Shown one piece after another: positions 27,950-30,900 of a DNA stretch of 64,000 nucleotides. Numbering within the stretch: position 1 is the stretch's first letter; each line of letters starts with the position of its first letter. Where the stretch lies: contig JBPOGI010000001.1 in NCBI GenBank assembly GCA_051251855.1, forward strand, positions 800,001-864,000, read 5' to 3'. Position numbers: made by a program. This stretch comes from Roseibacillus sp. (lineage in GTDB: Bacteria > Verrucomicrobiota > Verrucomicrobiia > Verrucomicrobiales > Akkermansiaceae).

Positions 27950-30900
27950 ATTGAAGCCGACTTCGTCCACGAGGATGTCGTAGGCGCGTTTGCAGATGCG
28001 GATCTTCTCGTCATAGGTGGCGGCTTGACCGTTTTCGTCGAAGGCCATGACGACAGCAGCAGCTCCGTAGCGCATGATGTGACGGGCGTTGTTTTTGAAG
28101 ATTTCTTCGCCTTCTTTGAGGGAGATGGAGTTGACGATGCCTTTGCCTTGGAGGTGCTTGAGGCCTTCGGCGATGATTTCCCACTTGGAGGAATCAACCA
28201 TGATGGGGACCTTTGTAATGTCGGGCTCGGATTGCACGAGGTCGAGGAAGCGACCCATCATTTGCACGCCATCGATAAGGCCGTCGTCAAAGCAGATATC
28301 GATGACGTTGGCTCCGTTCGCAACTTGTTGGCGGGCGACTTCGAGGGCGTCTTCGAGCTTGTCTTCTTGGACGAGTTTACGGAAACGAGGAGAGCCGGCG
28401 ACGTTGGTGCGTTCCCCGATCATGAGGAAGTTTTTGTCGGGAGTGTGGTTGTAGGTGTCGGAGCCGGAGAGGCGGAGAAGGCGTGGGAGAGGGGTCATAA
28501 GGTTGTTCGTTTTTTTGACGCAGAGTCGCAGAGTTCGCGGAGGTAGACGCAGAGATTTTTTAGGAAGAGGATTTGGAGTTGATGATACGAGTGACTCCGT
28601 CTTTGAGGAGAGAGTTGTTGAAGTTAATTAAGAGGCCAAGTGGCTTGTCTGCGAGAGTGAGGTAAGTGAGAAGTTGGGCCTTGTGGATTGGAAGAACTTT
28701 GTCGATGGCTTTAAGTTCAACTACTAGAGTGTCGTTGACAAGGATGTCGATACGGTAGGCGTTTTCAATTTCGAGTCCTTTGTAGCTAAGGGGTAATAAA
28801 ACTTCTGTTTCGCAGGAAAGGCCTTGAAGCTGGAGTTCATGAGCAAGGGCCTTCTGATAGCTTGCTTCCAAGAGTCCGGGTCCTAAGATTCTGTGGACCT
28901 CTATTGCTGCTCCAATCACAGCATGCGATAACTCATTTATTTCCATTAAAAATCTCTGCGTTTCACTCTGAGTTCTCTGCGGCTCTGCGTCGAAAAACTA
29001 CTTCTCTAAACTTGGAATCGCTCTCGGAGCTTTGCCTTCGACGGCCTTAGCGATGGCGGCGATGTGTTCGGGGGTGTTGCCGCAGCAGCCGCCTGCGAGG
29101 TTGAGGAGGCCGGCGTCGGCGAATTCGATCATGTATTCGGCCATGTGCTTGGGCTCGAGGTCGAATCCGGTAGGGGCGAGTGGGTTGGGGAGGCCGGCGT
29201 TGGGATAGCAACTGAGGTGGGTGGTGACGCACTTGTCGAGGTCCTGCAGGAAGGGCTTCATGAGGTCGGGACCGAGAGAACAGTTGAGACCGACGGCGAG
29301 AGGATTGGAGTGGGCGACGGCGTTCCAGAGGGCCTCGCCTTTTTGGGCTGAGATCATGGTCTCGCCTCCGCGACCGACGGCGGCGGAGATGATGATGGGG
29401 AGTCTGTTAGGGGAGTCGTCGAGGACTTCCTGGCAGGCAACGAGAGCGGCTTTGGCGTTGAGGGAATCGAAGATGGTTTCGACCATGAGGATGTCGACGC
29501 CGCCTTCGATGAGCGCTTTGATTTGGTGAGTGTAGGCGTCTTTGACTTGGTCGAAGGTGACGGCGCGGAAGGCGGGGTCGTTGGGATCGGCGAGGTTGGT
29601 GAGGGAGACGGTCATGGGGCCGATGGCTCCGGCGACGTAGCGAGCGCGGCCGGTTTCGTTGGCGACGCGGTCGGCTTCCACGCGGCAGAGTTTGGCAGAC
29701 TCCACATTGAGGCGCCAGACGAGGTCACTGATCTCGGCGTTGTTGACCACTTTTTCTTCGAAGAACTCGGGGTCTTTACGGGCTCCGTCGCCGGCTTTGC
29801 GGGGGTCTTCGACAAAGAACTCGGATTGGGAAAGGGTGGTTCCGGAGAAGGTGTTGGTTTCGACGATGTCGCTGCCGGCTTCGTAGAAGCGCTTGTGAAT
29901 ATCGGAAATGACGTCGGGGCGGGTGAGGGAGAGGATGTCGCCGTTGTTGAGGAGGTCTTCTTCGTTGCCTTTGAATTCCTCGCCGCGTGCGTCAGCTTCG
30001 GTGAGCTCGTAGCCGCGAATAGTGGTGCCCATAGCGCCGTCGAGGACGAGGATTCGTTCAGCGAGAGCGGCTTGGAGTTCGGCGGTTGGGTCCGGTTGCA
30101 TGATAATCTGTGTGGCTTAAGTGTATATCCTTACTCAGGTGGGTCAAGATTTCGTATCAACATATCGTGATTTGTTGGGAGGAGTTTTTTAGCCGGCAGA
30201 GAAAAGGATTTTGCACCGGTGAAGAGAGTCATGGTTTCGCTCTTTGCGTCTTTCCATTATTTGGAGGTTTGGCTAAAACACGTCAATGAGCGCAGAATCG
30301 TTGGAGGATTACTTGACGGCTGTTGTTTCCCAAGGGGGAAGTGACCTCCACCTGTCTCCTAAATCTCCTCCGGGGATTCGGATTGGAGGCAAATTACGTG
30401 GAATTGCGAAGGACTTGCTGAGTTCAGACGATATTCAGGAAATTGCTAATAATGTCCTGAATGAGCGGCAACTGAACAAGTTAAAGGAGGATTGGGAACT
30501 CGACTTCATCCTTGATTCGAATGTGGGTCGTTTTCGTGGTAACGCGCACTATACCCGCAATGGTTTGGAAATGGCCTTGCGGGTCTTACCTGCGGAGGTT
30601 CCGAGATTGGAAAATCTGGGGCATCGTCAGGAAGTGGTCGCTCTGAGTGAGATTCGACAGGGCTTGATCTTAGTGACGGGAGTTGCAGGGGCTGGAAAAT
30701 CGACTACTTTGGCCTCTTTGGTTCGGACGATTTCAAAGATTCGTTCTGGGGTGATTATTACGATTGAAGAGCCGATTGAGTATTACATTGGGCATGCGGC
30801 GGCCTTGGTGAAGCAACGTGAAATCGGCACTTCGACGAAGGACTATCCGACGGCATTGAGGCAAGCTTTACGACAAGACCCCGATGTTCTGGTCGTGGCG

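Follow-up and report, generated by a model that had tools for sequence, protein, structure and literature searches.

The gene for methionine synthase of a Roseibacillus species is divided into two parts by a spacer of 499 bp, and this spacer contains one small gene enclosed by inverted repeats; the locus thus raises the question of what the spacer is and how it relates to the division of metH. The host is a marine bacterium, and the window referred to below is the whole stretch of its DNA that was analysed, 64,000 nucleotides in length. The spacer is probably a copy of a selfish hairpin cassette that is widespread and resembles the ORF-bearing intervening sequences (IVS) of 23S rRNA but resides in protein-coding operons. 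An earlier note on this DNA had described the cassettes of the genome as mobile units; new relative to it are the identification of the flanking genes as metH halves, the varied cassettes of congeners, the relatives at the hisS/aspS junction, the generality of the design and a second split of metH.

Anatomy of the metH cassette

The unit spans positions 28499-28997 of the window (Table 1). Terminal inverted repeats are present: the arms are 50 nt each, 82% complementary and separated by 387 nt, and they enclose a single ORF, bearing out the one-gene unit of ~0.5 kb bounded by inverted repeats that had been proposed here. In a scoring scheme of our own the inverted repeat reaches 27.5, versus a maximum of 14.5 in 274 controls, which were shifted windows in related loci. 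The 5' arm consists of a T-run followed by 3-4 tandem units of the CGCAGAG type, and the predicted RNA centroid structure pairs it with the 3' arm (z -3.0).

Table 1. The metH cassette and the two flanking genes, in coordinates of the window
Feature	Position	Strand	Description
metH part 1	28998..30101	-	homocysteine S-methyltransferase domain, 367 aa; Pfam S-methyl_trans, E 8.9e-76
5' arm (gene sense)	28948..28997	-	inverted repeat I1; belongs to the 16-mer family with 34 matches
GxxExxY / PDDEXK_3 gene	28560..28946	-	128 aa; Pfam and NCBIfam matches
3' arm	28511..28560	-	inverted copy of the 5' arm; 16-mer family
tail	28499..28510	-	CGAACAACCTT in gene sense; joins the 3' arm to the ATG of metH part 2
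metH part 2	25739..28498	-	919 aa; pterin-binding, B12-binding and activation domains

The TAG stop of metH part 1 (29000-28998) abuts the arm on one side, and metH part 2 starts 12 nt beyond the 3' arm on the other. In the methionine synthase model NF007024, which has 1234 positions, the match of part 1 ends at position 341 and that of part 2, whose Pfam domains are Pterin_bind, B12-binding_2, B12-binding and Met_synt_B12, begins there. The position of the cassette is the linker between the homocysteine and the pterin domains and, therefore, methionine synthase is made from two genes.

The GxxExxY protein

The sole Pfam match of the 128-aa ORF is PDDEXK_3 (PF13366; E 1.7e-41, 141.7 bits against a cut-off of 22); in NCBIfam it matches TIGR04256 GxxExxY (E 6e-42, 142.7 bits against a cut-off of 35). 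An alignment of 46 sequences shows G24, E27, E77 and K79 as invariant, and Y30 and D67 are conserved in no fewer than 90% of its members. The AlphaFold model (mean pLDDT 94) predicts a restriction-endonuclease-like fold; as modelled, the protein is a minimal PD-(D/E)XK nuclease fold in which D67, E77 and K79 are conserved. The neighbours retrieved by fold searches (Cas4, lambda-exonuclease type, restriction enzymes and Hjc; best Z 7.9, Foldseek E at least 1.7e-3) are all generic PD-(D/E)XK proteins, so that no specific function follows from them. The PHROGs library gave no match to the protein, a sequence search among solved structures gave none either, and the PADLOC defence library returned weak Cas4-type matches only (E about 7e-4). 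GxxExxY proteins are 50-60% identical across phyla, contrary to the phylogeny of their hosts.

Fission of metH and the congener sites

The cassette had been placed between two conserved neighbouring metH genes; these are rather two halves of one gene, which 7 of 18 relatives have as a single open frame and the other 11 have split at the same linker. Since the halves are fused in those seven, the cassette marks a point of gene fission. Every form of the cassette, whether intact, decayed or reduced to scraps, falls in the linker gap. The cultured Roseibacillus persicicus KCTC 12988 has an orthologous cassette in metH. In congeners the metH site is occupied by GxxExxY cassettes that differ from one another, also in their arm motifs, by decayed remnants (such as the internally deleted cassette of 250 bp in genome G001), or by spacers of 30-60 bp; the cassettes found at this site in congeners are 44-57% identical, with the exception of those of G000 and G004, which reach 80%. 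The congener metH sites regarded as empty in the earlier note are in fact still split and contain arm-like scraps, and are footprints instead of naive sites. An intron-like removal that would restore a fused metH was also considered, and was dropped because the relatives with spacers of 30-60 bp plainly have two genes.

A second split of metH, ~13 codons away, is found in another family in 9 of 19 genomes, two of the nine having arm-like remnants at the site; cassettes or their arm-like remnants coincide with two separate fission points of metH. Insertion may have caused the split, rather than have followed it; a split older than the cassette is also conceivable. In the first 18 genomes, an AU test did not reject that the split metH genes all go back to one origin (p 0.267). 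An amino-acid echo at the split was discarded as a target duplication, as in our reading it has no counterpart in the DNA (5 of 18 bases); no target-site duplication was recognised at the metH, mutS-upstream or hisS/aspS junctions in comparisons that are all between diverged species. The polymorphism among congeners reported for the metH, mutS-upstream and batA/DUF58 sites was recovered at all three, and the batA site is filled in four genomes, probably five, which is more than had been counted.

Other cassettes and dispersed repeats in the genome

The genome contains three PDDEXK_3 genes and two 23S_rRNA_IVP (PF05635) genes, the same numbers as in the earlier note. Apart from the metH cassette, three of the cassette genes have strong inverted repeats (68 nt at 82%, 46 nt at 83% and 49 nt at 90%), while the gene at the nrd site is spanned by only a 19-nt inverted pair and has a hairpin of 35 nt at one of its ends.

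The 16-mer that characterizes the arms of the metH cassette has, at up to 2 mismatches, exactly the 34 genome matches claimed before, versus 3.2 expected from base composition and 2 in one genome simulated with a Markov-1 model. Judged by eye, ~29 of the 34 have a longer shared context and ~5 look like chance; most of these ~29 related CGCAGAG-family arm copies are gene-less. The single CGCAGAG repeats are not randomly placed, since all of them (21 of 21) have their G-rich strand on the G-rich strand of replication, as defined by GC skew. Arm-like scraps are also present at unfilled sites of this genome.

For the second repeat family, defined by a 41-mer, the existence of inverted pairs was upheld and the count was revised: blast found 22 matches, among them five gene-less inverted pairs plus the cassette, instead of 17 matches and four pairs. 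The copies align at 89-100% to a cassette arm, and those of nearly full length (38-46 nt) at 89-95%. Gene-less inverted pairs in the genome measure 130-235 bp. The five pairs of the 41-mer family share their arms and have unrelated interiors; with only the arms in common, they do not look like classical MITEs, whereas the 250-bp cassette of G001 is an internally deleted form. The assembly lacks a 23S gene, and none of its four small contigs C2-C5 carries an Rfam family.

Occurrence of the design across phyla

Of 80 GxxExxY loci retrieved from many phyla, five had too-short flanks and were left out; among the remaining 75, 51 have a flanking inverted repeat whose score passes the 95th percentile of 274 controls, and in 43 it is higher than in any control. 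The proportion is 71 of 79 for four-helix-bundle loci measured against 303 controls, with 66 above the maximum. The hairpin-cassette design is therefore general, being found with both GxxExxY and four-helix-bundle proteins in many phyla. Throughout, the arms are built of short tandem units, the best period being 7 nt in 111 of 118 IVP arms and 8 or 9 nt in 65 of 94 GxxExxY arms. Mismatches within the arms, counted in 43 loci, are G:U in 73 cases and A:C in 84; this lack of a G:U excess gives no sign of selection on the stem at the RNA level.

The upstream ORF is co-oriented at 55 of the 65 loci that have an upstream ORF call, and the flanks of GxxExxY cassettes are housekeeping partners: trpE lies upstream in nine loci, with trpG found downstream in seven, hisS/aspS and the metH halves account for three loci each, and gatA/gatB, pyrH/frr and hemB/hemL also occur. 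No description of the design outside rRNA was found in the literature on GxxExxY, PDDEXK_3 or IVS.

Turnover and relatedness of the cassettes

The number of GxxExxY copies varies from 0 to 4 per genome in nine congeners, with none in G006, G007 and G008, and the copies derive from several protein clades, each with its own arm type. The cassette type conflicts with the tree of the flanking genes, since AU tests on the latter reject both G000+G004, which share one cassette type, and G001+G005 as clades (p about 1e-4 and about 9e-4, respectively; in these two tests the groups were named after the tree was seen). A single origin of all cassette proteins at the metH site was not rejected (p 0.136).

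The nearest protein relatives of the metH cassette are those of hisS/aspS cassettes with the same arm type: the metH cassettes of G000 and G004 group with the hisS/aspS cassettes of G001, G002 and G005 (SH-aLRT 96), and in this clade intact arms are of the CGCAGAG type, those of the G002 hisS/aspS cassette being largely decayed. Cassettes at different sites are never close copies and have at best 64-67% protein identity; any jumps must therefore be old. Relatives also differ in the presence or absence of a cassette at the metH, mutS-upstream and hisS/aspS sites. Of the mobile-element interpretation advanced before, the cassettes, their arms, the dispersed repeats and the differences between filled and unfilled sites stand as described, and mobility itself is supported indirectly, by the copy number of 0-4, by the conflict between cassette type and flank tree and by the presence of one clade at two sites. 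The cassette has no associated transposase or recombinase.

A probable selfish hairpin cassette and its alternatives

The unit comprises a 5' arm of 3-4 tandem units of 8-9 nt, a gene for a GxxExxY PD-(D/E)XK nuclease of ~125 aa and, behind it, the inverted 3' arm with a short tail; arms and gene would travel jointly as a single unit. No promoter of its own is evident, and transcription would probably occur by read-through from the host operon. Within the genus, cassettes would occupy a few tight intra-operon junctions (the metH linker, hisS/aspS, upstream of mutS and nuoK/nuoL), where lineages would exchange or replace them, and decay by internal deletion would leave gene-less arm pairs, solo arms and footprints of 10-60 bp. 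Observed directly are the correspondence of arm types to protein clades, the turnover at the sites and the decay series, as are the anatomy, its generality across phyla and the coincidence with two separate fission points of metH. The conserved nuclease may bind or cut its own repeat arms and in this way drive or maintain the unit, and pairing of the arms, in RNA or in single-stranded DNA, may matter; an unrelated, non-nuclease four-helix bundle in the same design weakens the case for the nuclease itself as the mobility enzyme. Against the hairpin cassette stand the unrelated interiors of the gene-less 41-mer pairs, the lack of a recognised target-site duplication and of an associated transposase or recombinase, the distance between cassettes at different sites, the missing G:U excess and the two single origins that AU tests did not reject.

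The closest known counterpart is the ORF-bearing IVS of 23S rRNA, a link already drawn in the earlier note and an apt one. As described in the source, the IVS of Coxiella has an ORF for a four-helix bundle, a stem, 3-4 tandem heptamers (GACAGAT) and a cut by RNase III (PMC4990558). By that account, the IVS of Coxiella burnetii and Leptospira and the present cassettes share a size of ~0.43-0.5 kb with one ORF of ~125 aa looped by a long stem of inverted ends, arms with 3-4 tandem short units, and a sporadic, horizontally patterned distribution, mobility being suspected but unproven in both (PMC4990558). In addition, two other cassettes of this genome carry the S23p/four-helix-bundle family PF05635. 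Conversely, the metH cassette lies in a protein-coding gene and operon and not in a 23S rRNA helix, its ORF is of the PD-(D/E)XK type (PDDEXK_3) instead of a four-helix bundle, and its arm units are of 8-9 nt.

IVS stems, according to the same source, are known substrates of RNase III (PMC4990558), and this agrees with a very improbable alternative, namely that the spacer is a stable host module, in which the arms form a stem of RNase III or terminator type that tunes the two operon halves and the protein serves the cell, for example in defence or repair, with vertical descent and frequent loss. In its favour, the RNA prediction pairs the arms, co-transcribed genes always lie on both sides of the cassette and the AU tests permit single origins (p 0.136 and 0.267); yet the arms have no excess of G:U, three congeners have no GxxExxY copy, decayed copies are common, as are footprints, the flank tree has the cassette types interleaved, the protein identity of 50-60% across phyla runs counter to host phylogeny, and the defence library offers nothing beyond the weak Cas4-type matches at E about 7e-4. 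A free-standing homing endonuclease, which would cut the unoccupied site and let repair copy the cassette through flank homology while the arms regulate or insulate the operon, is quite unlikely as well. In phage Aeh1, mobE splits nrdA into two working genes, and in T4 mobE and the gene-60 bypass element form a mobile cassette; the mobE cassettes of T-even phages encode an HNH enzyme and are not known to have inverted tandem-repeat arms. Here too a small nuclease gene with conserved catalytic residues is wedged in or between conserved housekeeping genes (metH, nrdB/nrdA, aminoacyl-tRNA synthetases, trpE/G, mutS), the interrupted gene stays functional as two pieces, occupancy varies between relatives, one site is occupied across several genera and families, and cassette type and flank tree conflict as gene conversion would have them do. 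However, the present protein is of the PD-(D/E)XK type and occurs in bacterial chromosomes of many phyla, one protein clade is found at two unrelated sites, and a single site holds different cassettes with different arms, which would need many specificities; moreover, homing leaves the conserved tandem-unit architecture of the arms unexplained, and four-helix-bundle cassettes of the same design and at the same kind of site have no nuclease.

The small gene between inverted copies of a repeat that is also dispersed without a gene, as singles and inverted doublets, recalls REP/REPIN elements and RAYT systems, in which a single-copy, vertically inherited gene for a Y1 (HUH) transposase lies with inverted REP copies. 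By analogy, a resident, host-tamed and non-moving nuclease gene would spread or maintain the arm repeats, the adjoining arms being simply its nearest substrates. The ~29 related and mostly gene-less CGCAGAG copies agree with this, as do the 41-mer copies, at 89-100% to a cassette arm, and the fixed GC-skew orientation of all 21 single CGCAGAG repeats. Replication-coupled single-strand mobility, which such an orientation recalls, is known for IS200/IS605 and has been proposed for REP elements, and the bias of the cassette-family repeats hints at single-strand or replication-linked handling. The analogy is nevertheless held to be rather improbable, since the fold of the metH-cassette protein is PD-(D/E)XK and not that of a Y1/HUH transposase, each genome has 0-4 copies from several clades with their own arm types instead of one vertically kept gene, and the package of gene plus arms itself varies among congeners at one site; arm pairs around unrelated sequence, with no common spacer, also differ from REPIN doublets. 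Correia/NEMIS and other MITE-like hairpins that are co-transcribed with genes are similar as short elements in operon spacers bounded by inverted repeats, like the gene-less pairs of 130-235 bp described here, but they are not known to carry a gene, and they have interiors in common as well as target duplications, whereas here interiors differ and no duplication was seen.

The hairpin cassette also admits a bolder formulation, which is on the whole unlikely: GxxExxY and four-helix-bundle cassettes would be an undescribed class of autonomous hairpin elements, in which each protein recognises its own arm units (spaced by 8-9 nt for the nuclease and by 7 nt for the pentameric bundle), movement is single-stranded and linked to replication, elements land in ORF linkers and cause recurrent gene fission, twice for metH in Verrucomicrobiota, and the class is the source of the 23S rRNA intervening sequences. 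Landing in ORFs at tolerant linkers would be possible because the unit brings a stop at one end and a restart context at the other.

If the cassette interpretation is true, two very common families of small "hypothetical" proteins, the GxxExxY nucleases and the four-helix bundles named after the "23S rRNA intervening sequence", gain a biological context, and the 30-year-old puzzle of the origin of rRNA intervening sequences becomes linked to cassettes in ordinary operons, which are far more numerous. The metH case would be a concrete, testable mobile cassette at the fission point of an essential enzyme, a point that it possibly created, and the tandem-unit arms offer a defined substrate for the biochemistry of proteins without known function. 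For annotation, arms, solo arms and footprints may account for many odd intergenic repeats and "split" genes.

Two minor observations concern the ends of the unit. Metagenome contigs from four runs gave fragments only: two near-identical pieces carry the cassette without defining its ends, and one joint of low depth skips 578 nt. A role of the tail as a general start-codon context is unsupported, the regions upstream of 2162 long ORFs being featureless; in the sequences themselves, the mutS-upstream cassette of this genome closes with a near-identical tail.

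Anatomy of the metH cassette

The unit lying between the two parts of metH is a real member of a class of hairpin cassettes built like the intervening sequences (IVS) of 23S rRNA. In each of its arms a T-run is followed by 3-4 tandem CGCAGAG-type units, and the neighbouring ORFs, judged from their sequence, are the two halves of one gene, metH. In the predicted RNA fold the arms pair (z -3.0), with the stop codon of part 1 at the stem base and the start of part 2 located 12 nt past the stem; among arm mismatches from 43 loci, G:U is not in excess over A:C (73 vs 84), thus giving no sign of selection on an RNA stem.

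Coordinates of the metH cassette, its flanking ORFs and the gene-less inverted pairs of the same genome
Feature	Location	Strand	Properties
Intergenic gap (whole cassette)	window 28499-28997		499 bp; between two minus-strand ORFs
GxxExxY ORF	window 28560-28946	minus	128 aa; single ORF of the gap
Inverted arms	window 28511-28560 and 28948-28997		50 nt, 82% complementary; flank the GxxExxY ORF
metH upstream ORF	window 28998-30101	minus	homocysteine-binding domain of methionine synthase; MetH model match to position 341
metH downstream ORF	window 25739-28498	minus	pterin, B12 and activation domains; MetH model match from position 341
Gene-less 41-mer pair	C1:57360-57580		45-nt arms
Gene-less 41-mer pair	C6:116525-116800		45-nt arms
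Gene-less 41-mer pair	C7:405940-406175		45-nt arms
Gene-less 41-mer pair	C7:420710-420915		45-nt arms
Gene-less 41-mer pair	C8:312165-312405		45-nt arms

The GxxExxY protein

Pfam PDDEXK_3 (E 1.7e-41) and the NCBIfam model TIGR04256, 'GxxExxY protein' (E 6e-42), both cover the whole length of the cassette protein. Residues H18, G22, G24, E27, E37, E77, K79, H88, A90, Q91, Y95, N108 and F109 are invariant in a 46-sequence alignment, and Y30 and D67 are conserved in 90% or more of the sequences; these positions correspond to the GxxExxY motif and a PD-(D/E)XK triad. Purifying selection on the catalytic residues across phyla indicates that the predicted nuclease activity matters. The confident AlphaFold model (mean pLDDT 94, pTM 0.88) has generic members of the nuclease superfamily as structural neighbours, namely a Spirosoma restriction-endonuclease-like protein (Z 7.9), Cas4 SSO0001 (Z 7.6) and archaeal Hjc (Z 6.8), together with restriction enzymes and splicing endonucleases; a sequence search of solved structures gave no match. 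In the 2012 survey of PD-(D/E)XK proteins, PF13366 was entered as 'unknown'.

Splitting of metH

Of the 18 genomes examined in the order, seven (G016, G017, G021, G022, G023, G024, G029) have an uninterrupted metH frame, and the other eleven have the gene split at the linker between the homocysteine and pterin domains; split MetH enzymes are known to be functional in other bacteria. The gap contains an intact GxxExxY cassette of 446-516 bp in the genome under study (G000) and in G002, G004, G005 and G015, and a decayed one, with recognisable N- and C-terminal scraps of the protein, in G001 (250 bp) and in G025, from a different family (188 bp). A short spacer of 30-61 bp is found in G006, G007, G009 and G018, and three of these four spacers carry a single arm-like unit (a post hoc match, with a rough chance estimate of about 0.01). 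In a tree of the flanking metH DNA, the nine split genomes that belong to Roseibacillus and two neighbouring genera are monophyletic (support 99/99), and the AU test does not reject the hypothesis that all split forms arose once (p 0.267).

A search for a second split, using a junction-spanning query on 251 genomes of the phylum, gave a match in 206. One family, f12, is conspicuous, with metH split in 9 of its 19 matching genomes. Its cut lies about 13 codons further downstream than that of Roseibacillus; the conserved LRLSG motif is on the upstream half in f12 and on the downstream half in Roseibacillus. Arm-like remnants lie beside the cut in two of these nine splits, immediately behind the stop codon of part 1 in G204 (locus L223) and before the restart in G240. 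In G204 and G195 (locus L224) the gap is enlarged to 2.4-2.9 kb and encodes long ORFs, which we take to resemble cobinamide-salvage genes (CbiZ-like and CbiB-like). Two separate cuts in one metH linker, each with traces of a cassette, make it plausible that cassette and fission are causally linked; they do not settle which came first.

Turnover and distribution among congeners

The cassettes at the metH site are of several kinds. The arm unit is CGCAGAG in G000 and G004, whose proteins are 80% identical to each other, CGCAAAG or CGCTAAG in G005 and the decayed G001 copy, CAC-N-GAG in G002 and CGCGGAG in G015; proteins associated with different arm types are only 44-57% identical. These types interleave on the tree of the metH flanks, where the groupings are (G000, G001), (G002, G007) and (G005, (G004, G006)), and the AU test rejects both G000+G004 (p about 1e-4) and G001+G005 (p about 9e-4), each group having been chosen after the tree was seen, which weakens both tests. 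In the protein tree, the metH cassettes of G000 and G004 share a clade (SH-aLRT 96) with those at hisS|aspS in G001, G002 and G005, the intact arms of this clade being of the CGCAGAG type, and the remaining metH-site proteins are placed elsewhere. Arms and gene would move as one unit: a single clade, with its one arm type, occurs at both metH and hisS|aspS, and the metH site accommodates several clades. The AU test on the cassette proteins, with only 127 columns, does not reject monophyly of those at the metH site (p 0.136). Upstream of mutS, the cassettes of G000 and G002 differ, as do their arms, and the spacers of G001, G006, G007 and G008 are short and arm-less.

Among the nine congeners, each genome contains 0-4 GxxExxY genes (none in G006, G007 and G008, one partial copy at a contig end in G003, three in G000 and G001, four in G002, G004 and G005) and 0-5 genes of the bundle family, the four-helix-bundle proteins (23S_rRNA_IVP) carried by the second type of cassette. 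Recurring GxxExxY junctions include the metH linker, hisS|aspS, the region upstream of mutS and a nuoK|nuoL-like junction. In G000, lone arm-like units, with a T-run on one side and an A-run on the other, lie at the unfilled hisS|aspS junction and at one further junction; at the nuoK|nuoL-like junction (C1:14850-15360, outside the window) a small, seemingly membrane-embedded ORF (about 87 aa) precedes a solo arm of a bundle-type cassette. This last junction is occupied by a PDDEXK_3 cassette in three congeners. In G004 (C16:20133-22002) and G001 (C19:39617-44037), bundle and GxxExxY cassettes lie 1-4 kb apart in successive spacers of one nuo-like operon.

Dispersed repeats and their polarity

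The earlier note described small genes in cassettes bounded by inverted repeats, and this observation is confirmed: G000 contains three PDDEXK_3 and two 23S_rRNA_IVP genes, with strong flanking inverted repeats at four of the five and a weak one at the fifth. The 16-mer that represents the arms of the metH cassette gives, with up to 2 mismatches, the same 34 genome hits as before, where about 3 are expected by chance (3.2 by composition, 2 in one simulated genome); about 29 of the 34, judged by eye, have a longer context in common. The 41-mer family, to which the arms of a bundle-type cassette belong, also forms five gene-less inverted pairs with conserved arms and unrelated interiors, which fit poorly to simple MITE copying. 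Beside one arm, three of these pairs have about 25 bp in common, with coding potential for a short peptide starting MS-x-RS-x-RG.

G000 has an exceptionally pronounced GC skew: all 100-kb windows of contigs C1 and C6-C13 give values of about +0.2 or -0.2, and the skew switches once, near 1.1 Mb on C1. The single CGCAGAG repeats, 21 in number, are without exception oriented with their G-rich strand on the G-rich strand of replication, where random insertion would give about half; such polarity suggests either a process tied to replication or selection. Contigs C2-C5 are of 2.2-3.1 kb each, have about 50% G+C, less than elsewhere in the genome, and contain no Rfam family; the 23S rRNA gene is absent from the assembly.

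Comparison with known systems and occurrence in other phyla

The closest described system is the ORF-bearing 23S rRNA IVS. In Coxiella (PMC4990558), the IVS is 428 nt long and carries a four-helix-bundle ORF; RNase III cuts its stem, which contains 3-4 tandem heptamers, at the first of them, and IVS mobility is a long-standing but unproven proposal. The metH cassette is like the IVS in build and differs by its location, in metH and not in rRNA, and by its ORF family. Literature searches on GxxExxY, PDDEXK_3, the family accessions and IVS did not find this design described outside rRNA, and the class appears to be undescribed in print. In RAYT/REPIN systems, too, a gene lies between inverted copies of a repeat that is scattered through the genome, but their enzymes belong to another class than that of the cassette; free-standing homing-endonuclease cassettes of phages also lodge between or inside essential genes, leaving genes in pieces. 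The metH unit adds its position at a fission point, its turnover between congeners, an arm type common to relatives at another site and solo arms strictly polar to replication; the mechanism of movement and the role of the nuclease we infer.

The cassette design is a general one. Relatives of the cassette protein, 48-80% identical to the query, were collected at 80 loci (75 with enough flank) from Verrucomicrobiota, Thermodesulfobacteriota, Acidobacteriota, Pseudomonadota, Planctomycetota, Chloroflexota, Bacteroidota and other phyla. The flanking inverted repeat exceeds the 95th percentile of 274 shifted-window controls in 51/75 loci and the control maximum in 43/75; for the bundle family, with 303 controls, the corresponding figures are 71/79 and 66/79. 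The arms of both families are tandem short units, with sequences highly variable between lineages; the best period is 7 nt in 111/118 bundle-family arms and, in the lineages sampled, 8 or 9 nt in 65/94 GxxExxY arms (7 nt in just 6 of these), a tendency and not a rule. By crude ORF calls, a co-oriented upstream gene is present in 55/65 loci, the cassette lying 30-70 bp past its stop. Housekeeping genes are frequent neighbours: trpE is upstream in nine GxxExxY loci, with trpG downstream in seven of them, hisS|aspS and the metH halves flank three loci each, and gatA|gatB, pyrH|frr, hemB|hemL, rpe|gph and others are also found; many Verrucomicrobial bundle-family loci come after a gene with an nrdB-like end.

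At L097, L103 and L059 (Chloroflexota, Cloacimonadota) each side of the GxxExxY gene has a complete hairpin, not one arm, made of two inverted arrays, so that the gene lies between two doublets. Seven other loci (L068, L070, L075, L076, L087, L055 and L040), labelled Thermodesulfobacteriota, Nitrospirota and delta-proteobacterial/Myxococcota, have, inside the outer tandem-unit arms, a nested second inverted repeat on each side of the gene; its stem is AT-rich and roughly 25-30 nt long.
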